DNA from: a virus
Reading direction: 5' to 3' (one strand)
Length of the DNA stretch: 14,469 nt
Virus genome (UHGV): UHGV-0142781
Shown: positions 1-13,753 of the stretch, piece by piece
Numbering within the stretch: the stretch's first letter is position 1
Layout of the letters: each line of letters begins with the position of its first letter
Position numbers and translations under genes: made by a program
The notes under the pieces: model-generated
The model's database searches: none
What the model saw: the letters and a program-made list of their open reading frames with translations, nothing else
What the model was told of the DNA's origin: nothing

Positions 1-236
1 GACAGCAACCGGCATGTTCCATTATCAGCAGGCTGTGACCGTTCGACATACCCGGTAAACCAGCGCAGGACCAGACCATCATAACCAACATCGATCCGCA
101 CCATTTTGCCGGTGTAATCTGTCTCTGTCCCCGCCGTAATAAACCCCCGACCGCACGCGTTCAGCTCCAGCACGATATTGCAGTCAATCAGATGGACCGG
201 ATCAGAGGAAAGGTACAGGCGTTTAATTGGTTTCAT
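1..236 (-). CDS. Phage tail protein, N-terminal part (gene runs off window start); weak resemblance to P2 gpD (late control D / hub) N-terminus
   Basis: Reverse-strand ATG at 234-236; my translation begins MKPIKRLYLSSDPVHLIDCNIVLELNACGRGF... and stays open to position 1. The GRGF...G.DG.V...F.GYVE pattern loosely matches my recollection of gpD-family N-termini. Product identity is low-confidence. Confidence 0.45.
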   Translation of the reverse strand, partial: MKPIKRLYLSSDPVHLIDCNIVLELNACGRGFITAGTETDYTGKMVRIDVGYDGLVLRWFTGYVERSQPADNGTCRLL

Positions 237-243
237 CGTTTAA

Positions 244-786
244 TTACCCCAGCGCATCGTTGACCGGCTTTAAGACTTTTTCTTCAAACCAGCTCATTTT
301 GTCGGCTGGTTCATCAGCACCGGCAGCCGGACCCGCGCCCTTTGCCCCTGTTTGCTTGGTGCTGGCCGTCGCGTTGCCTTTTCGGGCCTGTCGTTTTTCC
401 GGGACACTGCCTTTTTCACGCAGGGTGAAACTTACCTGCCAGGCAAGGCGATCCTCCTGCGGTACGGCATCAATCTGACCGGTGAACGTGGCTTCACGAA
501 GGTTGATAGCCGTTGCCGTCGCATTGGCAACACGGTACTTTTTTAACGCGCCGCTGGCTTCGGTTGCGGATGCCAGCTGGAAAAGCCGCTGTAAGACGGC
601 TTCGTCGTCGAATGTCACCAGACCCGACACGCGCAGCTCTTTGGCCTTGATGCCCTGTTCAGCATTGGCCGTGCTCGATGTCTGGCCCGACTGGTCCTTC
701 TCCTGAAACTGCATGGAAGGTGAAACCAGCATGTTTTGCATGGCAATCCCTTCACCATCAAGCGCGAGTAGTGCGGTCTGGCTCAT
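244..786 (-). CDS. Hypothetical phage structural protein (position consistent with gpU-like tail protein)
   Basis: 180-aa ORF with AGGGAAG-type RBS upstream of its ATG; sits between the Ala-rich ORF and the gpD-like ORF on the same strand; host-like GC. Function assigned by position only. Confidence 0.5.
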   Translation of the reverse strand: MSQTALLALDGEGIAMQNMLVSPSMQFQEKDQSGQTSSTANAEQGIKAKELRVSGLVTFDDEAVLQRLFQLASATEASGALKKYRVANATATAINLREATFTGQIDAVPQEDRLAWQVSFTLREKGSVPEKRQARKGNATASTKQTGAKGAGPAAGADEPADKMSWFEEKVLKPVNDALG

Positions 787-1288
787 GTAGCATCTTCCCT
801 AAGTCAGATAACGAATCCCCGATAAACATCATCGCGGCGGTATGCACTGCCGTTGTTTGCGGGATGCCTTTCAGCAATTCAGCGGCAGCAACGGCATAAC
901 TTCCGCTGTAACTGAATGAAAAAATATTCGCACTGGCGGCTTTCAGGTCGTCCAGTCCCTGGCTGAGCGAGGACAGCAAACCGGCCCGTTCCTGAATAAA
1001 TCCCGTAACCTGATTTTTTAGATCTGTTGTGGTGGTACTGACTGCGGCGGCCAGCTGCGCGGCGGCAACACGCTGGGCATTCAGCGCCAGCCGGTTGGTT
1101 GAGACTGATAACGGCGCACTGGCTGGCAATACATCTGCTTTAACCGGCAACTGCATTTTTACTGTGCTGAGTTCTGCGGCCGCTGCCGCCATGCGGCTTA
1201 CCTGCGTAAATACCGGGGCCGGAAATACGGTGGACAGTTTATTCAGTCCCTGCATAAAAGCGTCATGGGTATTTTCCGCCACCATCAT
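758..1288 (-). CDS. Ala/Gly-rich phage protein, possibly a 5'-truncated tape-measure (gpT)-like remnant
   Basis: ORF track gives 758..1552, but that start would overlap the divergent Q start codon. The first plausible internal start is the MM pair at 1283-1288. The frame stays open upstream to 1552, as expected if the gene's 5' end was lost. Composition (poly-Ala, Q/L/S-rich) is tape-measure-like. Confidence 0.35.
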   Translation of the reverse strand: MMVAENTHDAFMQGLNKLSTVFPAPVFTQVSRMAAAAAELSTVKMQLPVKADVLPASAPLSVSTNRLALNAQRVAAAQLAAAVSTTTTDLKNQVTGFIQERAGLLSSLSQGLDDLKAASANIFSFSYSGSYAVAAAELLKGIPQTTAVHTAAMMFIGDSLSDLGKMLHEPDRTTRA

Positions 1289-1545
1289 GACGATAACGTC
1301 ACCACTTCCACCACCACTACCGGATAACAGCTTTTTAGCCAGATATCCCACCGCGTTGGCAGGGCTGAGATAACCGCCTGAATACCGGTTTTTAACGCGC
1401 TCAGGTCTTCCGCTTCCATGTTTTCCACGCTTTTGACGTATACCGTTACCGCCAGGGTGTGGCTGGTTATCTCGCACGCCGTAATTAACGAACCTATCGA
1501 TCACGAATATGACCGCCCATCGGGCTGGTACTTTGGGAAAGCAGC

Positions 1546-2607
1546 ATGACAAAGAAACAGCGTAAAAATAAAAAATTCGGGTCCATGACCGGCAACAAGG
1601 TTGAAACCTTCACGCCAGGGCGCGGAAGCGTGATCACCTTTGGCGAACCAGAACCCATCCTGACGACCGGCACTGATTATCACAATATCTGGTATGACAA
1701 TGAGTATGACCACTGGCGACTCCCGATTGATCGCCTGGCGCTGGCCCAGTTGCCGAACCTTAACGGCCAGCACGGCGGGGTACTGTATGCGCGGCGCAAT
1801 ATGGTGGCCGGTGGCTATATCGGCGGCGGCCTGACGCCTGACCAGGTCGAACAGGCTGTCTTTGATTACCTGCTGTTTGGTGACGTCGCTATCCTGAAAA
1901 TTCGTAACGTATTCGGGGAAGTGATCGACCTGCTGCCGCTGCCGTCGCTGTATCTGCGCTGCCGGAAAGACGGGTCGTTTGCCGTTCTGCAGGAAGGGCC
2001 AGCGCTTATCTATGACCCGGAAGACATCGTTTTCTTTAAAATGTACGACCCTCGCCAGCAGGTGTATGGCCTGCCTGACTATATCGGCGGCATCCATTCG
2101 GTGTTACTCAACAGTGAGGCAACCATCTTCAGGCGCCGTTACTACAATAACGGGGCGCACATGGGCTTTATTCTCTATACCAGCGATCCGAATCTGACGC
2201 TGGAAATGGAAAACGAAATCAAAGAGAAGATCGCCCAGTCCAAAGGGCTGGGTAACTTCCGCAATATGTTTATCAACATCCCGAAGGGCGACCCGGAAGG
2301 GGTTAAAATCCTGCCGGTGGGCGAAGTCAGCGCAAAGGACGAATTTGCCAACATCAAAGGGATCACCGCACAGGATATCTTTACCGCTCACCGTTTCCCC
2401 GCTGGCCTGGCGGGTATCATCCCGACCAATGGCGCGGTAATGGGCAACCCTGAAACCGCCCGCACAACCTATCGCAAGGATGAAGTTATCCCCTTGCAGC
2501 GCAAGCTAATGAACGGCGTCAACAATGACCCGGAGATCCCCGCACACTTGCACCTGGTTTTTGACGTGGATATCCCAGCAATTACCACCGAAAAGGGCGA
2601 AAAATGA
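1546..2607 (+). CDS. Q: Capsid portal protein (P2 gpQ family)
   Basis: 353 aa; motifs FGEPEP, IFRRRYYNNGAHMGFILY, SKGLGNFRNMF and EVSAKDEFANIKGITAQDIFTAHR match my recollection of P2 gpQ. GGGAAAG RBS at 1533-1539. Confidence 0.85.
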   Translation: MTKKQRKNKKFGSMTGNKVETFTPGRGSVITFGEPEPILTTGTDYHNIWYDNEYDHWRLPIDRLALAQLPNLNGQHGGVLYARRNMVAGGYIGGGLTPDQVEQAVFDYLLFGDVAILKIRNVFGEVIDLLPLPSLYLRCRKDGSFAVLQEGPALIYDPEDIVFFKMYDPRQQVYGLPDYIGGIHSVLLNSEATIFRRRYYNNGAHMGFILYTSDPNLTLEMENEIKEKIAQSKGLGNFRNMFINIPKGDPEGVKILPVGEVSAKDEFANIKGITAQDIFTAHRFPAGLAGIIPTNGAVMGNPETARTTYRKDEVIPLQRKLMNGVNNDPEIPAHLHLVFDVDIPAITTEKGEK

Positions 2608-2930
2608 GCGCAGTTAAGTTAAAATCATCCCCATTGTTAGCAATGGTGTGCGGGATGGTGAACATGCGAGTTTTTAAAATTAAATGTCCTGAATGCGGCT
2701 CACCGGCCATCATTCGCAAATCAGACTGGAAAGATAAAAAACTGGCCGATTTATACTGCGCCTGCACGGAAGTTGAATGCGGCCACACCTTTGTTTTTAA
2801 CGCCCAGTTTTCACATACTCTCAGCCCCAGCGGACTGACCGGCAACAAGCTGGTTAAATTTCTGATTGATCGGCTCAAACCAGACGAAAGACAATTCGCT
2901 TTAGATTTGCTAAACAACCATATTAATTAA
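2604..2930 (+). CDS. Ogr/Delta-family zinc-finger transcriptional activator (late-gene activator type)
   Basis: CPEC-x22-C-TEVE-C-GHTF matches the Ogr pattern C-x2-C-x22-C-x4-C-x2-TF (P2 Ogr: CPLC...CQNVNCSATF). ATG at 2604 overlaps the Q stop TGA at 2605-2607 (ATGA). An alternative start at 2664 (MRVFKIKCPEC) gives an Ogr-sized protein. Confidence 0.7.
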   Translation: MSAVKLKSSPLLAMVCGMVNMRVFKIKCPECGSPAIIRKSDWKDKKLADLYCACTEVECGHTFVFNAQFSHTLSPSGLTGNKLVKFLIDRLKPDERQFALDLLNNHIN

Positions 2931-2982
2931 CCTATAAGCACCGAGTATCTTTATTTAAATGTGATATTTATAAGGAAATATA
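2931..2982 (+). promoter_or_regulatory. AT-rich leader of the cargo cassette (possible promoter plus RBS)
   Basis: Very AT-rich stretch (TTTATTTAAATGTGATATTTATAAGGAAATATA) ending in an AAGGA RBS before the ATG at 2983. No specific -35/-10 assigned. Confidence 0.3.
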
Positions 2983-4818
2983 ATGAGCAATTCAAAATAC
3001 ATTAATTTAGATGCGAGAATAAAAAAACTAAAAGAAGTTGTTAAAGATTTAGACACAAACACTTTAGCAACCTACTCTTTTTGGGAAATGTACAAATTTG
3101 GTACATTAGGTCAAAAAATTGAACTACAATCACCAGCACGACAAATCTTATATCTTTTTGGGATTGCATGTTCATCTGCTGAACCAACCGAACCAACTGA
3201 TAATGTTGAGGGTAAGATAAAACAAACAGTAGAGATCCTAAATGATATTTTTACAAAATATATGTTGGCGTACTTTCCAACCAAAGATGATTTAAAATCT
3301 GGATTAGAAGATGAATGGCATAAAGTTAGAGAAGTTGCTATGCCAATGTTTTCAAACTACTTTTTTGAAGGGTTAAAAGTTTCCACTGAAAACTTCAAAG
3401 GGATCATAAAAAATTATTTCAATGGTTTTGAAAATGAAATAAAAACACATTTTGGCTTAGATCACCATGAAATGGTAGAAATTTTAAATCTCATTGGTGA
3501 GCTTATACAGAGCAAATATGACAGATTCCGTGAAATAATGGATACATTAAAAGACGAACATGAGAAATTTAAAGAGAATAATTTTGAAAAACATGAAGAT
3601 TTTATAACATATATGGATGACATGAGGGAGCGTACAAAACATTTAGCACAAGAATTTCATGACTTCCTCAATGGGAGTGTATCATTCAAGTTTGATTCAA
3701 TAAGATGTAAACTTGGTGACGATGTCGTTGATAGTTTTATAAAAGCTTTCGTTACAGAGCGTGGAAACTCATCCGAAATCAAATACATTACTGATGAGAA
3801 TCCATTTTCATATAAACCGATAGTAACTGTAAATAATCTGGATTATATGCTCCCTTCTGCTAACGCAGCTTATGAAGCTATCATTCTTAATCTTGAAAAG
3901 TTTTTTAAAGAGTCAAAACACAATGATAAATTTAGAAAAGCCCGAGACAACAGGCTGGAACATGAGACTTTTTGCACCTTTAGAAATTTCTTCCCTGAAT
4001 CAACTACAATACTTGAAAGTGTATTTGAAACAAACAAATCCCATAATGAACATGATCTGATTATTTTCCATGATAAAACGATTCTTATTGTAGAGGCTAA
4101 AGCATCACCACGCCGCGCTCCATTGAGAGAACCAGCCAGAGCATACATTAGAATTAGAGATGATTTCAAACGTAAATCAGGAATACAAAGCGCATCTGAA
4201 CAAGCAAATAACTTAAGAAATTTAATCATTAATAATGAAAAAACATCATTATATGATAAAAAAGGTAATTTACTATATACCATAAATCGTTGTGACTACG
4301 ACAATATATATTGTATATGTGTCACTAAAGATGATTTCGGAATGCTTGCTACAAATTTAACTTTAATGTTAGAAAAAAAAGAAGATGAACCCTACCCTTG
4401 GGTTATTTGTATTCAAGACTTGAAGTTTTATTTTGATTGCCTTAAGGAAATAGATTTGGATCATGACTATTTCTTAAATTATATTCGTGAAAGAATAAAA
4501 ATACACGGCAAAGCAACGGCATGTGATGAGCTTGAATATGCAGGTGCATACTTGAATTATGGTGGTTTCGATTTCATTAATAAAGAAGTAAACTCTAACG
4601 TTTGTCTTGATATCTCTGAATCACGAGTATTCGATGAAATCCATATCGAAAAAGTTAATGGCAGGAAATATGTTCACCAGATTAAAAAACCTACTTACAG
4701 CATTTTAAATAGAGATAAATTAATTTCTTCTTTAAATTTCAATCACTCAAACAAAGATGCAAAAAAAGCAAAATCAAAAAGAAAGGAACAGAAAAAATCC
4801 AGAAAAAGAAACCGTTAA
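2983..4818 (+). CDS. Cargo protein with central PD-(D/E)xK-like nuclease motif and poly-basic C-terminal tail; candidate defence effector
   Basis: 611 aa, strongly AT-rich. Residues 356-373 read EHDLIIFHDKTILIVEAK (D-x12-ExK, nt ~4048-4101). C-terminal 23 residues are almost all K/R/S. No Walker A motif. Confidence 0.85.
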   Translation: MSNSKYINLDARIKKLKEVVKDLDTNTLATYSFWEMYKFGTLGQKIELQSPARQILYLFGIACSSAEPTEPTDNVEGKIKQTVEILNDIFTKYMLAYFPTKDDLKSGLEDEWHKVREVAMPMFSNYFFEGLKVSTENFKGIIKNYFNGFENEIKTHFGLDHHEMVEILNLIGELIQSKYDRFREIMDTLKDEHEKFKENNFEKHEDFITYMDDMRERTKHLAQEFHDFLNGSVSFKFDSIRCKLGDDVVDSFIKAFVTERGNSSEIKYITDENPFSYKPIVTVNNLDYMLPSANAAYEAIILNLEKFFKESKHNDKFRKARDNRLEHETFCTFRNFFPESTTILESVFETNKSHNEHDLIIFHDKTILIVEAKASPRRAPLREPARAYIRIRDDFKRKSGIQSASEQANNLRNLIINNEKTSLYDKKGNLLYTINRCDYDNIYCICVTKDDFGMLATNLTLMLEKKEDEPYPWVICIQDLKFYFDCLKEIDLDHDYFLNYIRERIKIHGKATACDELEYAGAYLNYGGFDFINKEVNSNVCLDISESRVFDEIHIEKVNGRKYVHQIKKPTYSILNRDKLISSLNFNHSNKDAKKAKSKRKEQKKSRKRNR

Positions 4819-4872
4819 CAAAATATCCTTTTGACGAATTCAAACCAACTGAACATATGGAGAAAATAAAAC

Positions 4873-6228
4873 ATGAGAATGACCGCCCCATTAAAATCAT
4901 TTTCTGATGGATTTTGTGAGAATGACGACATTTTTGAAAGAAAAAAACTTCACGACATTATTATGCGAGTTGCTACTAACGCGCCTGATAAAAGTTTAGT
5001 TTTAGCATTAGATGATAAATGGGGTAATGGGAAAACTTCATTTGTAAAAATGATGGAATCAGAAATAAGCAAAAAACATTCCGATGATTTCGAAGTCATC
5101 TATTTTGATGCATTTAAAAGTGATTATCAGTCGGATCCATTTGTAGCGTTAACTTCCAATATTTATTCGTTGGTTAGTAATGAAGAAGGCAAGCTAAAAA
5201 CATTAGGTGAAAAATTATTAAGTGCTGGTAAAAAACTAGGAGCTTCATTCCTTTTAAATGGTGCGAAGTTTGCAATCAGTACTATTTCAGGTGGGATGGT
5301 TTCTGGTACTGTAGTCGAAAAGGCAAGTGATACAATATCAGAATCCATATCATCACCTGTAGAAAAATACATAGAAGAAAAGATAAAAGCAAGTGAGAGT
5401 GAGTTTGCTACTATTGAGCAATTTGGAAATTTGTTAACTGAGATATACAAAGAAAGTGGAAAGAAAATATTTTTTATAATTGATGAATTAGACCGTGCAC
5501 GACCTGATTTTTCATTGGATTTATTAGAAAAGATAAAACATATATTCTCAGTAGAGGGTATTATTTTTCTATTGGTCGTCAATCGCGAACAATTTGAAAA
5601 AAGCATTGAGTCTCGATATGGCAATATAAACTCAAGATTGTATCTCAATAAATTTGTTCATTACTGGTTTTCGCTTCCCAAAACAAGCTGTTTATCTGAT
5701 GGTTGCTTAAATGGATATACTTATTCAACTATAAAACGATATTTACTTTCCATTGATAATGGAAACGACTTATTAAGTAGAAATGGTCCGCTTCTTAATA
5801 CACTATCATTGCTTTTGGAAATAAATGGAGCTTCTTTGAGAGAGGCGGAACGCTGTTACTCGGTATTTTCGGTTATCGAAGATGTCAATAAAGTAAACTA
5901 CTATACAAGTGATGCATATAAAGTAGCTTTGGGACTTGTTGTTTTCCTGAAAGTACATAACTCACAGTTGTTAACTGAAATTGTCTTAAAAAAAATCGTG
6001 TTAAAAGAAGCGATAGCCAAGCTTTTAATATACACAGTTCATCACCACAATATAATCGAAGCTCAATTCATTGAATATATCTTAAAGTACCATTACGCAA
6101 CAAATGAAGAATTAATAGAAGAAAGGAAGCAAAGAACATACTCTGATATAGAAGGTGGATATGGTCGAAGAACTCCCCTATTAGAAGGCATGTTTAAAAC
6201 AGTTGAGGGGTTTGATATTAGTTCTTAA
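4873..6228 (+). CDS. KAP-like P-loop NTPase; candidate defence partner
   Basis: 451 aa, AT-rich. Walker A-like DDKWGNGKTSF (res 47-57, nt 5011-5043) and Walker B FFIIDELDR (res 200-208), about 150 residues apart with a hydrophobic stretch between, as in KAP NTPases. 54-bp gap after the upstream gene, same strand. Confidence 0.85.
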   Translation: MRMTAPLKSFSDGFCENDDIFERKKLHDIIMRVATNAPDKSLVLALDDKWGNGKTSFVKMMESEISKKHSDDFEVIYFDAFKSDYQSDPFVALTSNIYSLVSNEEGKLKTLGEKLLSAGKKLGASFLLNGAKFAISTISGGMVSGTVVEKASDTISESISSPVEKYIEEKIKASESEFATIEQFGNLLTEIYKESGKKIFFIIDELDRARPDFSLDLLEKIKHIFSVEGIIFLLVVNREQFEKSIESRYGNINSRLYLNKFVHYWFSLPKTSCLSDGCLNGYTYSTIKRYLLSIDNGNDLLSRNGPLLNTLSLLLEINGASLREAERCYSVFSVIEDVNKVNYYTSDAYKVALGLVVFLKVHNSQLLTEIVLKKIVLKEAIAKLLIYTVHHHNIIEAQFIEYILKYHYATNEELIEERKQRTYSDIEGGYGRRTPLLEGMFKTVEGFDISS

Positions 6229-6319
6229 ACTCTATTTTTTCGCGGACTCTTTGCCGCCCGCCCCGCATCATCGCGCAGATCGACGCAACAAGTTGCGACG
6301 GTCAGCGCGATTGCATTCA

Positions 6320-8932
6320 TTATTTTGGGTGACTACCATCCACACCCGCCAGCATTTTTTGATACTCCCCGACCGGATCAAACCGCAGGCGCGTGGCATC
6401 AATACCGTGGTTATCACGCAGACGGTCCCATAATTTATTCACCGTCCGTGACTCATCGAGTAATTGACGCGTTATCAACTCGCCGCCAGCACTGCCCCGA
6501 TAAACTTTGCCGCCAATCTCCAGACGGCTCCCCATTAACAGCGAAACAGCCTGAATCTCTGAAATCTCAACCGAACACAACGCCGCATCAGCCAGCAGAC
6601 TGGCAACCTCAGGGGCAAGCGCTGCCCGCCTGGCTTTTTCAGCCGCCGATCTGGCCTCGGTTTTTTTAACGGCAGAACGCCAGGCAACATCTAATTCGCT
6701 CCCTGGCTCATAAGGTGATCCGCTTTGCCGCCTTTTGAATGGTGCTTCACGTAGTCGCCGCATCAATTTTCGCCGCGTTGGCTGGTCCATATTTTCAAAA
6801 TCGACGATTTCCTCTTCTGATTCTTCTGTCATACCCTCCACATCACGCGAAAAATCGGTGATTTTTTCGTCTTCCGTAGAGTTATTGACAGAACTCCAAG
6901 CGTCGCCGGTTGGCGACGGCAAAAGGTCAACCCCCAAACCGGGGCCGTTTTTGGCCTCGGTGGTAGCTTTAGATTTGGCGCAGATTTTCCACTTAACCAG
7001 ACGGGTACAAATACGGGAGGCATCACCCAGACGCGGCGACCAGACCCCGAAAACCTTTTCGGGGATCTCACAATAAGCATTCATTTCATCAGCTGGCTGA
7101 TAGGCCAGACGGACGACATAGTTTTCTCGCGGGATCAAAACCCCACCCTGGCGGATGATGTAGGTAGCAAAGCACCCGACATCGGCAGCGGCGCAAACCG
7201 CATCCATTGCAGGATCCACAAGCAACGGCGCACCGCGTTTGAAGGTATTGTCAATTTTCTGGCGGGTCGTGATTTGATTGCTCAGTTTGCGCAGCTCGCG
7301 GTAAACCGATATGGGCGGCTGTCCGATAGGCTGAAACTGGCGGATACGGTGAAGCGATGCCCAGGCCATTGCATATTTGGCGGTTTCATTCAGCGGCTTG
7401 CCGCTTTCGTCGTCCAGTTCACCGGCCAGCGCGTGGCCGTCGATATTCTTCGAAATGTATTTAGCGATATATGCCGTTGCCGACCCTTTCCGTGGGTCCA
7501 TTTTTTTTGACTTGAAACGAGCACCGGTATTGCGGCCCAGCTCATCGCGGTCTTCCGCAATGAAGTAGGCGCGAAGGATCGCAACCGTGGCTTTGACTTG
7601 CTCTTGTGGCATAAACAGCAACGCGTGCCAGTGTGGTGTCCCATCGTGATGCGGCTCGGCGACACGGAAGCCATAAGGGCGCAAATCTTCGCGTTTCAGT
7701 TTGGCGGTTGCACGGTTCCATACACGGCATAAATAGCGCTGCGCCTGGGCGACGGTGGAATGATTCCATTTGGCATTATGGTGGCCGGACGCAATATTAC
7801 TGTGATATTTCGACGGGCAAGTGATGGTCAGGAAAATACCAACATCGCCGCGACTTTGGGCGACAAGTTCAACGCCAGCCATTCTGGTCATAAGCTCATG
7901 GCGACGAATAGCCGGGTTAGACGTGGATTTATTAATCATTTCCTCAAGCGACGAAACGTTGCCGTCTTCGTCTACCAGTTCATGACTTTTGAAAAAATCC
8001 CGGTTTTTACGGCGCTGTTCCTGCCACTCGATCAGGCTGGAAGCGCTAACGTAGGCGTGCGCTTTTTTATTTACCGCGCCAACAGCACGCAGCTGGTTCT
8101 CGCGCCAGTCACAACGCAAGCGCCAGATTTTTCGCCCCCACCAGTCAGGCGAAGCCATACGCAAAATGGCCGTGCATATGCGCTCGCGTTCCCACGGCGC
8201 ATACCATGCAGGCGGCACAATACGAAGCGCCAGCATTTCTCGGCCCAGGTGGCAATAAAGCCAGTCCAGTTCTTCGACGTTCATGTCGGAAACATTCCGC
8301 CCTAGGGCTTCGCATTCCGTCCCCAGCATTTCAGCCATGCGGCTGGCGATCTCATTAGCGGCGCTTAGTGCATCCCGCTTTGTGAAATCAGCCAGACGTT
8401 GCCAGCGCCCGAACCAGTACGCGGCCAGTTCGCCGGTGATATCAGGCGAAACACCTTGCCTTGTGCGTACAACATCAAGACGCAGCAATGATTTTTTCAC
8501 GGTTCCCATAAGAAAATCATTGGTGTGTCTGGTTTCACGGTTGACCCGTAACCACTCAATTTTTTTTCGCCAGACTTCACGAATGAAGAACGGCTCTGCT
8601 AATAAACGCGCTTCGACACCTTCCGGCGTATTGGTCCAGGCTGCCGTCGTAGATTTGGCGGCTTCCATTTCCTGCCGGATTAAATTTTGATGGGCGGCCA
8701 GTGGCAGGCCGCACGGTTCGTACCTGTCCAGCGCCTGGATAAGCGCGTTACGGTCCCGCACCTCGTCGGGGTTGTAACCGGCGTGTCTGAAGATGTGATC
8801 GATGTGTTTTTTTACGGCAGGATGATGCGCCACCGCCCCGGCAAGCGGGGCGATTTTTTTCGGTTCGTAGGTGTACAGGCCAACAGCTGGGCGCGGCGCG
8901 TTCCAGGGCCATGCAAAAGCTGTGTCAGACAT
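6320..8932 (-). CDS. A: Replication initiation protein (P2 gpA family rolling-circle endonuclease)
   Basis: About 870 aa at the expected position upstream of the cargo slot; identified by size, synteny and general resemblance to gpA. ORF track starts at a GTG at 8950; the ATG at 8930-8932 (MSDTAF...) is the more likely start. Confidence 0.85.
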   Translation of the reverse strand: MSDTAFAWPWNAPRPAVGLYTYEPKKIAPLAGAVAHHPAVKKHIDHIFRHAGYNPDEVRDRNALIQALDRYEPCGLPLAAHQNLIRQEMEAAKSTTAAWTNTPEGVEARLLAEPFFIREVWRKKIEWLRVNRETRHTNDFLMGTVKKSLLRLDVVRTRQGVSPDITGELAAYWFGRWQRLADFTKRDALSAANEIASRMAEMLGTECEALGRNVSDMNVEELDWLYCHLGREMLALRIVPPAWYAPWERERICTAILRMASPDWWGRKIWRLRCDWRENQLRAVGAVNKKAHAYVSASSLIEWQEQRRKNRDFFKSHELVDEDGNVSSLEEMINKSTSNPAIRRHELMTRMAGVELVAQSRGDVGIFLTITCPSKYHSNIASGHHNAKWNHSTVAQAQRYLCRVWNRATAKLKREDLRPYGFRVAEPHHDGTPHWHALLFMPQEQVKATVAILRAYFIAEDRDELGRNTGARFKSKKMDPRKGSATAYIAKYISKNIDGHALAGELDDESGKPLNETAKYAMAWASLHRIRQFQPIGQPPISVYRELRKLSNQITTRQKIDNTFKRGAPLLVDPAMDAVCAAADVGCFATYIIRQGGVLIPRENYVVRLAYQPADEMNAYCEIPEKVFGVWSPRLGDASRICTRLVKWKICAKSKATTEAKNGPGLGVDLLPSPTGDAWSSVNNSTEDEKITDFSRDVEGMTEESEEEIVDFENMDQPTRRKLMRRLREAPFKRRQSGSPYEPGSELDVAWRSAVKKTEARSAAEKARRAALAPEVASLLADAALCSVEISEIQAVSLLMGSRLEIGGKVYRGSAGGELITRQLLDESRTVNKLWDRLRDNHGIDATRLRFDPVGEYQKMLAGVDGSHPK

Positions 8933-9146
8933 TGGATGCCCCGCTATCACCCTCCCGCTGGGAATGTTTTTCGATTAGCGGGTCGAGTAACACATTGAAA
9001 GAAATCAACAGCGTATTTGCGGCTTCACTTCCGGCGAGAACACCCGCGAACGTTGCGTGTGCAAGGGCCAGTGTTTTGGCTTCGTTAAGCGCAGCCAGTG
9101 CGCCGCGCTGGTATTCCGAAAGACCGTTATTAATTTTGTTAGCCAT
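8925..9146 (-). CDS. Small hypothetical phage early protein
   Basis: 73 aa; its ATG overlaps the dam stop (TGATG at ~9144-9148), suggesting translational coupling; position matches the small ORFs before A in P2. Confidence 0.6.
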   Translation of the reverse strand: MANKINNGLSEYQRGALAALNEAKTLALAHATFAGVLAGSEAANTLLISFNVLLDPLIEKHSQREGDSGASNV

Positions 9147-10111
9147 CAGAAGACCACCTCGTCAGCCGTCCCACCCCACACGGAATAACCAGCACAAGGG
9201 CCACAGTCAGGACAGCACCCACCACCTGCACGACGACAAGTTGCACAGACTTTGAGGACGCCGATCACTTCACTGGCGGCCCCTCTGGTAATGGCGTTCG
9301 CGCTGACAGAACGGTTAACGCTGATTTCCTGGAAGTTGAAAGCGCGATAAATCTCGCGGGTAGATGGGGTGTCGCTATTGGACAGGATCACCGGCGAACC
9401 AGTAAGGCGGTTAATATCCAGCAGGGCGGCAGCTAACTGGCGATGCTCTTTAATCCCAAACGGGGCGGTGTGGTATTGGGTGAAATTAGCGGTTTCGCTT
9501 GTTGGCAGGTATGGCGGATCGCAGTAGATAACCGCGTCACTACCAATCATAATTTTTAACGTGCTCTGGAAATCGCAGCACACGAAAATGGCTTTCGTGT
9601 CGTTAGCTTTTTCAGTGAATAAACGGATCTGTTCTTCCGGGAAGTAAGGCGGGGTTTTGTGTCGCCCAAAGGGAACGTTATATCCACCCTGTTGGTTGTA
9701 GCGTACTACGCCGTTATATCCGTGACGGTTCAGGTAAAGAAATTGTGCTGCACGAAGAATCTTGCCCGTGTCCGGTCCGTCCTCAAACACATTGCGCGAT
9801 GACAGAAGGTCATAGGCGCGGGCGTTGAAATCATCGCGGATCCACTTATAGCCGTCTTTATCGCCGTACACTTTAAACAGCGGGCGAGCAGCGTCGATCA
9901 CCGCATCAGGCCAGCGGGTTATCTGGCGATACAGGTTAATTAAATCTGGGTTGATATCACCCAGGATATAACGGCGATATTCAGTATTGAGGAAAACAGA
10001 AGCACCGCCGACAAACGGTTCCACCAGGCAATCGGCTTTCGGCAGAATCGTTAGCAAATCAGGCATAACCCGGCCTTTGCCACCGGGCCATTTAACGAGA
10101 GATCGAATCAT
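9146..10111 (-). CDS. dam: DNA adenine methyltransferase (Dam family) with Cys-rich C-terminal extension
   Basis: N-terminal KWPGGK, EPFVGG and catalytic DPPY (res 198-201) motifs; GGAGAAAG RBS. C-terminal about 35 residues carry six Cys (CATC...CC..C..C). Confidence 0.9.
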   Translation of the reverse strand: MIRSLVKWPGGKGRVMPDLLTILPKADCLVEPFVGGASVFLNTEYRRYILGDINPDLINLYRQITRWPDAVIDAARPLFKVYGDKDGYKWIRDDFNARAYDLLSSRNVFEDGPDTGKILRAAQFLYLNRHGYNGVVRYNQQGGYNVPFGRHKTPPYFPEEQIRLFTEKANDTKAIFVCCDFQSTLKIMIGSDAVIYCDPPYLPTSETANFTQYHTAPFGIKEHRQLAAALLDINRLTGSPVILSNSDTPSTREIYRAFNFQEISVNRSVSANAITRGAASEVIGVLKVCATCRRAGGGCCPDCGPCAGYSVWGGTADEVVF

Positions 10112-10181
10112 TTTTACTTTCTCCAGGGTGCAAGAAGCCCGACGCGTTAGCGCCTGTTTCTTTTTTGTGGGTAGTTAGTTG

Positions 10182-10571
10182 TTAATTGACTGCGTTATCT
10201 GGCGCGGGTGGTTTGTCGCGTATCGCCTGAATTTCGGCGCGTGGTGCTGCATAGTCCTTAAATTCCCACGGCATTGATGCTGCAAATTCGGAAAGGCGCT
10301 TAATGCCCATCAAAAGGCACGTTTGCTCCTTTTCGGTTAGATTTCCGTAAGTACAACCCAGCTGTTTAGCGGTCAGCTTCGGCATTCCGGCTATGTATCT
10401 GGACGCATCGTTTGCCAGGATGAAAATCACCTTTTTACAGGCATCATCTAGGCGGTTAAAACGGGTTGCAGTGTCGTTCACGCGTGAGGCGTTCAAACTG
10501 GCTTGTAGCCGCGCCCGTTGCTCTAAGAACTGGCGGCGGCCTGGTTGTTGTTCTGTCTTATCCATCAACAT
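10182..10571 (-). CDS. Hypothetical phage early protein
   Basis: ORF track starts at a GTG at 10577; the ATG at 10569-10571 has a GGGGAGG RBS 5 nt upstream. About 129 aa, phage-typical GC, same strand as the early operon. Confidence 0.6.
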   Translation of the reverse strand: MLMDKTEQQPGRRQFLEQRARLQASLNASRVNDTATRFNRLDDACKKVIFILANDASRYIAGMPKLTAKQLGCTYGNLTEKEQTCLLMGIKRLSEFAASMPWEFKDYAAPRAEIQAIRDKPPAPDNAVN

Positions 10572-10586
10572 AACCACCTCCCCGAA

Positions 10587-10808
10587 CTACGCAAAGATGC
10601 CCATTAAGCGGGAAAACCAGCGGCGCTTATTACGCGGGCGCGACATGAACGGTACACGGCAGTTTTTAACAAATTGAACATCTGCCGCTTTCGGCTGGAA
10701 GAACCGCCCGTCCGGGGTTTCAATCCAGCCGCGTTGATGCTGACGGTGGGTGATCTGCTGGCCGTGCGTGAGCAGACTAGCGAGTGAAGGGCATTGTGTT
10801 AATTCCAT
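10587..10808 (-). CDS. Small hypothetical phage early protein
   Basis: ORF track gives 10587..10880; the internal ATG at 10806-10808 (MELTQCP...) is preceded by GGAG. GC-rich, same strand as neighbours. Start uncertain. Confidence 0.45.
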   Translation of the reverse strand: MELTQCPSLASLLTHGQQITHRQHQRGWIETPDGRFFQPKAADVQFVKNCRVPFMSRPRNKRRWFSRLMGIFA

Positions 10809-10946
10809 GTTGATCTCCGTCATATTGAAAAGATGCCGGGATACGACCCCACGCCCGGCGCGTGTTTCCTGTGATAACATCGCTATGCCTGTGTAACTTT
10901 GAGCAGTGAATCAGGCATAACAATCACCAACACAGAAGGAGTTGTA

Positions 10947-11426
10947 ATGAAATTCAATGTGTTTTTTAAAAAAGACCACGGATCACACTGGGTGCTTTCC
11001 GATGATTCCCCCCTCTTTGAAAGTCCACTATTTGAAACAAGACCTAAAGCCATTGATGACCTTGAGAACTTTGTAGGCCTTATGGAATCGCCAATCTTTA
11101 TTAAGGCTGGTGACGATATTAATTCTGGCGATACAGAAAACTGTCCATCTGTAGTAATTTCTTTAAAACAGCATGAATCGCTATGGGGCTGGGAATTATT
11201 TATCTCAAAAAATGGACAACTTTCTAAAGTTACCGAAAGTTCAGGTAATGGCTTTGACTCATTAGAATTAGCAAAGCAAAGTGCCCAGTTTTTCCTTAAT
11301 GCCATTATCGACGCTCCTATTCTGGATCAAGCCGATGTCGCTATCCCCGGCATGCACTTCTCAAAATCTTTCGAGGAAACGCACCACATTGGTGACACTC
11401 ACCCATCTAGTAAATGGTTCAAATAA
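10947..11426 (+). CDS. AT-rich hypothetical protein (moron), antisense to the early operon
   Basis: ATG at 10947 with AGGAG RBS at 10936-10940 (ORF track extends to 10899). 159 aa, visibly AT-richer than neighbours; no recognisable motifs. Confidence 0.7.
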   Translation: MKFNVFFKKDHGSHWVLSDDSPLFESPLFETRPKAIDDLENFVGLMESPIFIKAGDDINSGDTENCPSVVISLKQHESLWGWELFISKNGQLSKVTESSGNGFDSLELAKQSAQFFLNAIIDAPILDQADVAIPGMHFSKSFEETHHIGDTHPSSKWFK

Positions 11427-11430
11427 TCCA

Positions 11431-11778
11431 TCACTGTGGTGTTATCGTTTTTCTTGTGCGAGGTGGTACATCTCGCACGGTTTCTTCATCAACAATTAAC
11501 TCATAAACTCTGATGCTGCTATCACCTTTTGATACGTCATCAAATACCTGAAAAAGAAAACTCATGAATTGCTCATAAGTGACGCTGGGTTCAACATACC
11601 CACCAGTAACCTCAATTAATGGTGTTAGTCCTGAATTATCTGCTAACGAAACGCAGTCCAACTTATCCAAACGGAAAAAGTAATTACCGCAAGGTGTTCT
11701 TTTATCCTTAATCCGTATAAATACATTTGATAACGCTGTATGACTATCTGAGAGTTTAAAGATTTTTGCCGTGTCCAT
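11431..11778 (-). CDS. AT-rich hypothetical protein (moron) immediately downstream of cox
   Basis: 115 aa starting 22 nt after the cox stop on the same strand; its stop lies 4 bp from the stop of the convergent 10947-11426 gene. AT-rich relative to cox. Confidence 0.6.
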   Translation of the reverse strand: MDTAKIFKLSDSHTALSNVFIRIKDKRTPCGNYFFRLDKLDCVSLADNSGLTPLIEVTGGYVEPSVTYEQFMSFLFQVFDDVSKGDSSIRVYELIVDEETVRDVPPRTRKTITPQ

Positions 11779-11800
11779 TTTATTCAGCCCTGTAAGTTGC

Positions 11801-12076
11801 TTATGATGGATTGCCCAGACCCAACCACATTAACCACCCTTCCCTAATTTCCTTCGGGCGGCTCTCATACGCCATTTTCATTCCGTTGTTCCATGCTGGG
11901 AGGTAGACCCAGTACTCACCTGCCCGCCCGGAAGTTGATTGCGGATCGGTCATCTCAACTACGGGTAGCTTTCCTTTTTCAATCATCCCCTTCACCGCTG
12001 CCGGTGTTTTACCAATGAGTTTTGCGAACTCCTGATATGGGACGGCATCTGTGCTTAACGCGATCTGTTTAACCAT
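11801..12076 (-). CDS. cox: Cox (excisionase / lytic-switch regulator)
   Basis: 91 aa; translation tracks my recollection of P2 Cox over most of its length (AIPYQEFAKLIGK, DPQSTSGRAGEYWVYLPAWNNG, ESRPKEIREGWLMWLGLG). GAGGG RBS. Confidence 0.9.
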   Translation of the reverse strand: MVKQIALSTDAVPYQEFAKLIGKTPAAVKGMIEKGKLPVVEMTDPQSTSGRAGEYWVYLPAWNNGMKMAYESRPKEIREGWLMWLGLGNPS

Positions 12077-12192
12077 TTAAGGCCCTCACAAGTTTAAGAA
12101 TCGTCACCAATGGCTTATAGTTGCCTTTGATGTTCATTTCTAAACATCAAACAGTCTACATCTAAATCAAATGGTATTGAGATCTAAACACT
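12077..12192. promoter_or_regulatory. Immunity switch region between cox and C (early and repressor promoters with operator repeats)
   Basis: Three direct repeats TCTAAACA (12139-12146), TCTAAATC (12161-12168), TCTAAACA (12183-12190), exactly 22 bp apart. A TATAAG -10-like element on the minus strand (~12113-12118) faces cox. Confidence 0.6.
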
Positions 12193-12492
12193 ATGTCAAA
12201 CGCCTTAAACGAGAAAATTGTACTCATCAGAAAGTCTGAGTATCTCAGCAGACAGCAACTAGCTGATTTAACAGGCATTCCCTATGGCACTTTAAGTTAT
12301 TACGAAAGTGGTCGTTCTACACCGCCCACGGACGTAATGATGAGGATTTTGCAAATGCCCCAATTCAGCAAATACACGTTGTGGTTTATGACCGATCAGG
12401 TTGCTCCCGAAGCCGGTCAGATAGCACCGGCCCTCGCACACTTTGGGCAAGATGTAACAACATCGCAGCACTCAGACCAAAAGATTGGTTAA
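12193..12492 (+). CDS. C: Immunity repressor C
   Basis: 99 aa; near-collinear with my recollection of P2 C (EKIVLIRKSEYLSRQQLADLTGIPYGTLSYYESGRSTPPTDVMM...), same length. Confidence 0.9.
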   Translation: MSNALNEKIVLIRKSEYLSRQQLADLTGIPYGTLSYYESGRSTPPTDVMMRILQMPQFSKYTLWFMTDQVAPEAGQIAPALAHFGQDVTTSQHSDQKIG

Positions 12493-12637
12493 CCATTCAC
12501 CAGGCGCATCTTTATTACAAAATTTGTTTACTTGTTGCCAAATACAACAAACACAACAAGTTTGTGAAATCTAAGCGCAAGGGAAAATTAACAGCAGCAA
12601 AGAAAACTCAACCTAGCACCATTCATTTGGGGGTCTT

Positions 12638-13645
12638 ATGACAATTAAGAAACTCGATGATGGTCGTTATGAAGTGGATATCAGACCTGCAGGGCGCAAC
12701 GGAAAGCGCATCCGCAGGAAATTTGACAAGAAAAGTGAGGCTGTAGCTTTTGAGAAACACACTCAATACAACCATCACGATAAAGAATGGCTGGCTAAAC
12801 CGACAGATAAGCGGCATCTGTCTGAATTAACAAAAGTCTGGTGGGATCTGAAAGGCAAGCATGAAGAACACGGAAAATCCAATTTGGGTAAGATTGAAAT
12901 CTTTACCCGGATCACTGATGACCCTTGCGCGTTCCAGATAACCAAAGCGCTTATTAGCCAGTACAGCATGACTCGCAGAGGGCAAGGCATAAAACCGGCC
13001 AGTATTAACCGCGACCTTACCTGCTTGAGTGGTATGTTTACTGCGCTAATTGATGCGGAGTTGTTTTTTGGCGAACACCCTTTCAGAGGGATGAAAAAGC
13101 TCAAGGAGCAGAAACCAGAAACAGGCTATCTGACGCAGGAAGAAATAACATTGTTGCTTGCCAATCTTGACGGGGACAACAAGAAAATCGCGATTCTCTG
13201 TTTAAGTACCGGCGCTCGATGGGGTGAGGCCGCGAAACTGAAAGCTGAGAACGTAATACAGAATCGGGTGACGTTCGTTAAAACAAAGACGAACAAACCA
13301 CGTACTGTCCCTATCTCTGAGGAAGTAGCTGTAATGATTGCGGGTAAAGGGTATCTGTTCCCAGATGCCTCATACCCGAAGTTCAGGCGAACAATGAAAG
13401 ATGTAAAACCAGATCTACCGGACGGGCAAGCAACTCACGCATTGCGTCACAGTTTTGCTACCCACTTTATGATTAACGGCGGGAGTATCATCACCTTGCA
13501 GAGAATACTGGGACATTCACGGATAGAGCAGACAATGGTCTATGCGCACTTTGCCCCGGAGTATCTTCAGGATGCTGTTTCACTCAATCCGCTACGTGGT
13601 GGTGTTGACTCCCAGAGTGTCCACACTGTGTCCACAGTAGGGTAG
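12638..13645 (+). CDS. int: Tyrosine integrase (P2 Int family)
   Basis: 335 aa; N-terminus MTIKKLDDGRYEVDIRPAGRNGKRIRRKFDKKSEAVAFEK and C-terminal HALRHSFATHFM...LGHSRIEQTMVYAHFAPEY match P2 Int as I recall it. GGGGG RBS. Confidence 0.95.
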   Translation: MTIKKLDDGRYEVDIRPAGRNGKRIRRKFDKKSEAVAFEKHTQYNHHDKEWLAKPTDKRHLSELTKVWWDLKGKHEEHGKSNLGKIEIFTRITDDPCAFQITKALISQYSMTRRGQGIKPASINRDLTCLSGMFTALIDAELFFGEHPFRGMKKLKEQKPETGYLTQEEITLLLANLDGDNKKIAILCLSTGARWGEAAKLKAENVIQNRVTFVKTKTNKPRTVPISEEVAVMIAGKGYLFPDASYPKFRRTMKDVKPDLPDGQATHALRHSFATHFMINGGSIITLQRILGHSRIEQTMVYAHFAPEYLQDAVSLNPLRGGVDSQSVHTVSTVG

Positions 13646-13726: not shown

Positions 13727-13753
13727 ACGCCCTTACGCAGGCTTATTTTTTGC
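13727..13753. other. Candidate attL core (P2 att-core-like sequence) marking the prophage-host junction
   Basis: CGCCCTTACGCAGGCTTATTTTTTG is close to the reverse complement of the P2 core as I recall it (AAAAAATAAGCCCGTGTAAGGGAGATT); lies about 80 bp after the int stop, just before the clpA terminator. Confidence 0.45.

Follow-up and report, generated by a model that had tools for sequence, protein, structure and literature searches.

Introduction

P2 Ogr, the late activator of phage P2, binds inverted repeats near position -55 of the late promoters, and contact with the alpha subunit of RNA polymerase is needed for its activity (PMC3152322). P2 and phage 186 have the activator gene behind tail gene D, beside attP. 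In phages K139 and Smhb1, the ogr homologue is located between the portal gene and the replication endonuclease gene (PMC8537503). The gpA-gpQ interval of P2-like phages has been described as a defence hotspot (Rousset et al. 2022, PMC9122126; PMC13586616). Here we describe an open reading frame (ORF) at positions 2604-2930 on the plus strand of virus genome UHGV-0142781, a stretch of 14,469 nucleotides (the window), in which it forms a maximal frame of 108 amino acids. A sequence-only reading of this DNA had contrasted the P2 position of ogr with that of an Ogr-type zinc-finger gene here that starts with an ATGA overlap on the stop of portal gene Q, at the place of the P2 cos region. It proposed that either the lineage had moved its late activator or the gene was part of the AT-rich cargo that follows. 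From comparison with related phages and prophages, we consider it very probable that this gene is the lineage's own Ogr/Delta late activator, a core gene placed after the portal gene at the edge of a gpQ-gpA hotspot that carries a swapped cassette.

Family assignment of the zinc-finger gene

The ORF matched the Pfam family Ogr_Delta (PF04606) over the full 47-position model with an E-value of 2.6e-17 and 62.9 bits, compared with a curated cut-off of 26.3 bits, and it matched phrog_603 ('transcriptional regulator') with an E-value of 4.6e-41. Its four zinc-binding cysteines (C8, C11, C34 and C39, numbered from M21) are spaced as CX2C-X22-CX4C and are encoded within 2685-2780. The protein was aligned with the homologues of Salmonella phage SW5, an E. 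coli prophage, ESSI-2, K139 (orf13) and a Providencia prophage, and with P2 Ogr, 186 B and the two halves of P4 Delta. The four cysteines were invariant, and free of gaps against P2 Ogr, 186 B and both P4 Delta repeats; BLASTP against P2 Ogr likewise aligned the CPEC...C-X4-C segment with zero gaps. Amino acid identity was 96% to the 'transcriptional regulator' of SW5 and SI7, 58% to the ESSI-2 protein and 52% to that of K139. Since the profile match and the gap-free cysteine spacing agree, the ORF is assigned on sequence grounds to the Ogr/Delta family as a genuine zinc-finger gene, as had been proposed from the sequence. By analogy with P2 Ogr, the small zinc-binding protein would bind an inverted repeat at late promoters and activate RNA polymerase.

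Position of the gene in related phages

The nearest phages were Salmonella phages SW5, SW3 and SI7 (Peduoviridae, genus Irrigatiovirus), with nucleotide identities of 96-97%; the value for SW5 was 96.9% over window positions 1468-2899, and the portal protein was 99% identical to that of SW5. In these phages the scaffold gene is divergent from the genes for the terminase large subunit (terL), the portal protein and the 'transcriptional regulator', which follow each other in this order. After the regulator come a convergent DNA methylase gene, a small ORF and the genes for the replication endonuclease, methylases, Cox, repressor and integrase. E. coli prophages of about 95.5% identity had the same order, and there the gene is named 'Ogr/Delta-like zinc finger protein' (91 amino acids) by the Prokaryotic Genome Annotation Pipeline (PGAP). 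The ogr homologue directly follows the portal gene in Cronobacter phage ESSI-2. In Vibrio phage K139 a small orf14 lies between the portal gene and orf13 ('zinc-finger protein'), and the order is otherwise the same.

A scan of one genome per species yielded 14 genome loci (13 complete) from 10 genera; the sources were Enterobacter, Kluyvera, Buttiauxella, Erwinia, Rahnella, Citrobacter, Hafnia, Photorhabdus, Providencia and one metagenome-assembled genome. Another 56 related loci came from IMG/VR; single loci are cited here by numbers with the prefix L. In 70 related loci, among them phages SW5, SW3 and SI7, prophages of E. coli and further Enterobacterales, and ESSI-2, the gene directly followed the portal gene whatever came next, empty sites included. 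Wherever the flanks were present, the order was terL, portal, ogr, a variable interval, replication gene A (repA) on the minus strand, dam on the minus strand and, further on, int, and the distance from the portal stop to the conserved zinc-finger ATG was 46-80 nt. The proposal that this lineage has its late activator at a place other than that in P2 is thus borne out across the 70 loci, and in K139 with orf14 in between. A check for a second ogr after gene D had also been proposed; tblastn with Ogr, B and Delta together with a cysteine-motif scan found no second Ogr-family gene, neither in the window nor in the complete genome of SW5. One other match to the cysteine motif, inside the dam-homologous region of both the window and SW5, had X21 spacing and no homology and was rejected. 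These comparisons place the gene, as judged from sequence, among the conserved core genes of the K139/ESSI-2/Irrigatiovirus branch of P2-related phages. The arrangement of ogr after the portal gene is ordinary and already annotated and published.

The other proposal, that the zinc-finger gene is itself mobile cargo and arrived with the AT-rich cassette, has two points in its favour: its G+C content of 0.43 lies between the backbone and cargo values, and its last 11 codons are AT-rich in common with L058, the only other locus with a relative of the first cargo gene. The region 1468-2899 is nevertheless 96.9% identical to SW5, whose neighbouring gene is entirely different (a DNA methylase gene), the zinc-finger gene is present beside empty hotspots and beside more than 20 unrelated cargoes, and the exchange touched only its extreme 3' end. 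The synteny survey refutes membership in the cargo, and we regard this origin as extremely improbable.

The defence hotspot and its cassette

Directly after ogr the G+C content drops from about 0.53 to about 0.31, and the next gene lies on the same strand, as the sequence-only reading had described. In blastn comparisons with SW5 and an E. coli prophage, backbone homology to SW5 stopped at 2899 and resumed at 6241/6242. Across 56 distinct junctions the ogr-repA interval ranged from 70 bp (empty) to 4.3 kb and was mostly of low G+C content. Essentially empty intervals were found at 14 distinct junctions, and the others carried unrelated, often defence-like genes on either strand. The cargo sampled included NsnA/GmrSD with a HEPN protein, an LmuB-like SMC ATPase, PDC-M68B with an ABC-3C domain protein, a Peptidase_M78 (IrrE N-terminal-like) protein and a dATP/dGTP pyrophosphohydrolase. 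From these comparisons, we read the AT-rich block at 2931-6240 as a cassette swapped into the known gpQ-gpA defence hotspot.

Two genes make up the cargo in the window (Table 1). The first encodes a protein of 611 amino acids for which no Pfam, PHROG or PADLOC match was obtained at normal thresholds; its match to NERD was below threshold (E 0.011). Scanning IMG/VR with this protein confirmed no relative, and among the ogr-anchored loci a homologue of 69% amino acid identity was found alone in the same hotspot of L058 (6313-8058). It is a candidate defence gene. The second gene encodes a KAP-family NTPase that matched the PADLOC candidate defence family PDC-S20 (E 8.9e-72). Homologues with 60-75% amino acid identity were hotspot cargo in seven IMG/VR loci (L036, L038, L039, L040, L044, L061 and L068), and a KAP homologue was alone where the interval fits one gene only. 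The two cargo genes are separable modules, and the window has both in tandem.

At the left junction, ogr is recoded over its last 11 codons, which use AT-rich synonymous forms (GCTTTAGATTTGCTAAAC...), and the final five residues read NNHIN in the window and NGQTA in SW5. The first cargo gene has its ribosome-binding site, ATAAGGAAATATAATG at 2970, at the end of the 52-nt spacer that follows. In most relatives, and at 14 of 14 empty sites, the ogr stop is immediately followed by a GC-rich hairpin and a T-run. A scan of 1300-3100 found no terminator after ogr in the window, and a hairpin test of the sequence there gave a minimum free energy of -6.6 kcal/mol with z +1.27. The 3.3-kb AT-rich cassette would have come in by recombination in the flanking core genes, and it replaced the last 11 ogr codons together with the ogr terminator. 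The hotspot of this lineage starts within the final codons of ogr, and some cassettes delete the terminator.

Possible read-through from ogr into the cassette

Since the terminator was replaced and no conserved promoter is apparent in the cassette, the 611-amino-acid gene, and perhaps the KAP NTPase gene too, might be transcribed by read-through from the ogr promoter. We offer this tentatively, as somewhat more doubtful than probable; it adds to the explanation of ogr as a core late activator and does not replace it. The first cargo gene lies on the ogr strand behind a spacer without a hairpin. In L058 its homologue is likewise directly 3' of ogr without the terminator, and all that the window and L058 have in common upstream of the ATG of this gene is the ribosome-binding site and the recoded 3' end of ogr. 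Loss of the ancestral terminator kept at all empty sites was more common with co-oriented cargo (8 of 15) than with opposite-strand cargo (6 of 27), although the association was weak (Fisher p = 0.085) and the hairpin test crude. Expression of ogr under every lysogenic condition examined in a P2-like Salmonella prophage (PMC7067206) also fits such transcription. On the other side, a possible extended -10 element, TGTGATATT at 2960 in the AT-rich spacer, could be the cassette's own promoter, and other co-oriented cargoes keep the terminator (L012 and the KAP-only loci L036 and L038). If read-through is true, the cassette would be tied to the ogr promoter and not to the late promoters. The suggestion that the cassette is coupled to phage late transcription survives in part: no late-promoter dyad was found upstream of 1546 or 2983, and co-transcription with ogr is possible.

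Start codon and putative promoter

The ATG at 2604-2606 overlaps the TGA stop of the portal gene at 2605-2607 as ATGA, so that the overlap noted in the sequence-only reading exists. This ATG consists of the end of the last Lys codon of the portal gene, AAA, and the TGA. To compare the leader (codons 2-20) with the core, 53 distinct close sequences were used. Variable columns at the three codon positions numbered 13, 12 and 13 of 19 in codons 2-20, and 37, 26 and 84 of 86 in codons 21-106. The ratio of synonymous to nonsynonymous changes was 0.42 in the leader and 3.05 in the core. In the Providencia lineage (L019, L020 and L086), the frame leading up to the conserved ATG is interrupted by stop codons, and K139 has an in-frame stop about 15 codons upstream of the conserved start. 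The ATG at 2664 (MRVFKIKCPEC...) is the sole start kept across all lineages, gives 88 amino acids and is preceded by a G-rich Shine-Dalgarno-like stretch.

The leader also contains the hexamer TAAAAT. The pattern TA[AG]AAT was found 38-50 nt upstream of the conserved ATG in 70 of 70 related loci (TAGAAT in one), even in distant loci with otherwise unalignable surroundings, and in the Providencia lineage the hexamer falls in a different, closed reading frame. Because codons 2-20 carry no coding signature, TAAAAT lies inside the leader and the frame is closed elsewhere, the gene start at ATGA is doubtful and the 108-amino-acid model is probably 20 codons too long. The leader at 2604-2663 is probably 5' untranslated or promoter DNA. 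Translation would most likely start at ATG 2664 and yield 88 amino acids, and transcription would most likely start from the gene's own promoter, with TAAAAT at 2620-2625 as the -10 element just 3' of the portal stop. Under this model the ATGA overlap is a by-product of the final AAA-TGA of the portal gene.

Some results speak against an own promoter and the shorter frame. A consensus promoter scan of 1300-3100 called zero plus-strand promoters, the -35 region upstream of TAAAAT is poor, and the leader is open in 53 of 53 distinct close sequences, so that coupled translation of a late terL-portal transcript may also yield the 108-amino-acid form. The alternative is that the gene starts at ATGA, is translationally coupled and is the last gene of a late terL-portal operon, which would mean positive feedback on late transcription. 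The kept ATGA overlap and open 20-codon frame agree with it, as do the 108 amino acids annotated by the SW5 authors and some gene callers and the in-frame upstream start that is also present in ESSI-2, L018, L021 and L022. PGAP and the SI7 authors, in contrast, annotated 91 amino acids, the leader lacks codon periodicity with nonsynonymous exceeding synonymous changes, its frame is shut in the Providencia lineage and K139, and TAAAAT is conserved within it at the DNA level. Depletion of stop-creating variants in the 20-codon leader was not significant (p = 0.17); a column-shuffle null for this test was set aside, since it ignores relatedness. In the window, moreover, such a transcript could not form, as the late promoter and terL are deleted. 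We judge a start at ATGA unlikely and retain the start at 2664.

A perfect 6-bp palindrome, CCATTG-TTAG-CAATGG, was seen at 2631-2646, just 3' of the putative -10 element. It is present in the closest relatives and degraded in distant ones, and could be an operator or chance.

Candidate operator at the late promoters

In promoter position upstream of 1546 or 2983, no P2-type TGT-N12-ACA was present. The window holds five copies of this pattern compared with about 3.5 expected, which is chance level, and none is in promoter position. Instead, the divergent promoter region between the terminase and scaffold genes held a dyad, ATTCGG(A/T)TA...CCGAA, in all 16 relatives examined, from K139 to SW5; it lies some 70-120 nt before the ATG of terL. 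The exact form TTCGG-N14-CCGAA occurred once per locus and nowhere else in the locus. With up to two mismatches, TTCGG-N14-CCGAA gave four matches in the window versus 7.6 expected, all within coding sequence; the dyad is absent from the window because the terminase/scaffold promoter region is deleted.

ATTCGG...CCGAA is a plausible candidate operator for this Ogr branch in place of TGT-N12-ACA. Some points count against the late-activator explanation here. The P2-type sequence was absent from the terL/scaffold intergenic region of all 16 relatives, the dyad proposed as the target is a guess, and the late-activator role of this branch is presumed from P2 Ogr. Since TGT-N12-ACA is absent in the relatives, the DNA specificity of this branch probably differs from that of P2 Ogr.

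State of the element

The window from 6 to 12818 was 100% identical to NCBI assembly GCA_030850205.1 (L027 is the identical contig) and to several other assemblies. Window bases 1-5 read GACAG, and the otherwise 100%-identical NCBI contig has ACGAA. Perfect 22-nt att direct repeats bound an element of about 15.9 kb. To the right of a short baseplate-J gene fragment (Table 1), only the last 78 bp of terL remain, and from 1468 on the window matched the terL 3' end and the portal gene in blastn; all intact relatives have a full terL upstream of the portal gene. The capsid, lysis, sheath, tube and fibre genes are all missing from the element. Independent deletions with other end points were found in the E. 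coli relative L005 and in the metagenome contig L013. The prophage is a deletion remnant of about 15.9 kb. Its ogr homologue is intact, its presumed targets are lost in cis, and the portal gene is cut off from the terminase gene and the late promoter. With the late operons lost, the activator has nothing left to activate in cis.

The remnant keeps the integrase, Cox, repressor, gene A, portal and Ogr homologue, the defence cassette and the SW5 genome-end region. One could picture it as a helper-dependent, satellite-like defence island that replicates on superinfection and whose Ogr homologue, in the manner of P4 Delta, cross-activates the late genes of the helper and drives the fused cassette; we hold this to be very unlikely. 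A P4-like satellite was considered, for which a dedicated gene set (P4 alpha primase, sid, psu) and an organisation beyond that of a deleted helper would be characteristic, and it was rejected. All backbone genes present belong to the phage itself (P2-type gene A, dam, cox, C, int and portal), and two deletions, which left the 88-bp baseplate-J scrap, removed the structural genes.

The Dam-type methylase encoded at 9146-10111 on the minus strand aligns to relatives over residues 1-288 of 321 only. The remaining 33 residues, a Cys/Gly-rich tail (CATCRRAGGGCCPDCGPCAG...), are not shared with SW5.

The cos and att sites

As had been noted from the sequence, no P2-like cos lies between Q and the cargo. 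The best match to the 19-nt P2 cos was 13/19 anywhere in the window and 14/19 in SW5, and blastn with the P2 right end gave no match. In HP1-like phages, cos was reported next to attP (PMC2771037), and a cos placement of the HP1 type is the likely explanation, by analogy, for the lack of a P2-like cos. The idea that the zinc-finger gene occupies the cos position does not hold: besides the HP1-type placement, only 27 bp separate ogr from the next gene in SW5.

The ends of the SW5 record fall between the last late gene and the integrase gene. The record-end sequence (GC-rich, ...CTGCGCAGGCGGGTGC|GGTGTAGCGCC...) is retained at about 3290-3340 of L027, some 1.7 kb left of the window start, where the remnant has it between attL and its last late gene. 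If the SW5 record ends are true genome ends, cos adjoins attP and the remnant keeps cos.

The integrase is 86.6% identical to P2 Int. A copy identical to the 22-nt right att core lies at 2865-2886 of L027, 2,153 nt left of the window start, and no tRNA was found at the att site. The left flank in L027 is a baeSR/yegP/yegQ-like region, and the right flank in the window is the clpA 3' end. E. coli prophages with a 100%-identical integrase adjoin yegR/yegS (L004 and L005). The difference in the right flank points to another attB or to a rearrangement in this host.

Table 1. Features of the window and dyad sites in related loci (positions are those of the window unless a locus is named).
Feature	Position	Strand	Evidence or remark
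5'-truncated phrog_1677 tail-region gene, left of the deletion junction	758-c.1383		blastn match, window 1200-1383
Baseplate-J gene fragment, 88 bp, double deletion junction	1381-1468	-	blastn against SI7 and E. coli prophage
Portal gene (P2 gpQ homologue), 353 aa	1546-2607	+	Pfam Phage_portal E 3.4e-13; phrog_68 E 2.8e-118
In-frame leader of maximal ORF, 60 nt, ATGA overlap to conserved ATG	2604-2663	+	No codon periodicity
TAAAAT hexamer, putative -10 element	2620-2625	+	Conserved upstream of ATG 2664
Predicted Ogr/Delta-family zinc-finger activator, 88-aa core coding sequence	2664-2930	+	Pfam, Cys alignment, third-position bias
Left cargo junction, recoded ogr end and 52-nt spacer	2898-2982	+	SW5 homology stops at 2899
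First cargo gene, 611 aa	2983-4818	+	Weak NERD-like nuclease region, residues 338-417
Second cargo gene, KAP-family P-loop NTPase, 451 aa	4873-6228	+	Pfam KAP_NTPase E 3.4e-39
Right cargo junction	Backbone resumes at 6241		blastn
Replication gene A	6320-8950	-	Pfam Phage_GPA E 4.9e-107
att core, right copy, CCCTTACGCAGGCTTATTTTTT	13730-13751	+	24/28 match to P2 attP core
ATTCGG...CCGAA dyad sites	L001 4193-4216; L007 1798-1821; L008 2098-2121; L017 7087-7110
ATTCGG...CCGAA dyad sites	L019 6964-6987; L021 7051-7074; L022 7019-7042

Comparison with known systems

The survey corrects the view of this locus: ogr after the portal gene is the normal K139-type layout, and the gene is neither a cargo-borne regulator nor a sign of a relocated cos region. 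The new points are modest. They comprise a probably over-long gene model with a putative internal promoter, a candidate operator that differs from that of P2, and a loss of the ogr terminator that is specific to certain cassettes. Cassettes that delete the terminator could place defence genes under the ogr promoter. These are by-products of use for annotation and for hotspot studies.

The regulators of K139 (orf13), Smhb1, ESSI-2 and the Irrigatiovirus phages belong to the same family as the window protein and occupy the same slot, between the portal gene and a variable region followed by the replication gene. Relative to the K139/ESSI-2/SW5 group, the window copy differs in its last five residues, has its terminator replaced by the cassette, and stands in a deletion remnant that has lost the late operons. 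It shares with P2 Ogr, 186 B and P4 Delta the CX2C-X22-CX4C pattern and the small size of a protein from a P2-related phage, whereas the identity is about 22% and the window protein has a conserved extra C-terminal segment of about 45 amino acids. The genes of P2 Ogr and 186 B follow tail gene D next to attP, while the window gene follows the portal gene, and the relatives of the window have ATTCGG...CCGAA where P2 late promoters have TGT-N12-ACA. The lysogeny module of the window is P2-like in its integrase and att core. As in the gpQ-gpA (cos-proximal, old/tin) hotspot of P2-like phages, variable cargo of low G+C content lies between the portal gene and gene A, and the contents sampled across the loci match known or candidate defence families (NsnA/GmrSD with HEPN, LmuB-like, PDC-M68B with ABC-3C and PDC-S20). 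The boundary of the hotspot, in contrast to the portal gene and cos of P2-like phages, is here ogr, with no P2-like cos found.

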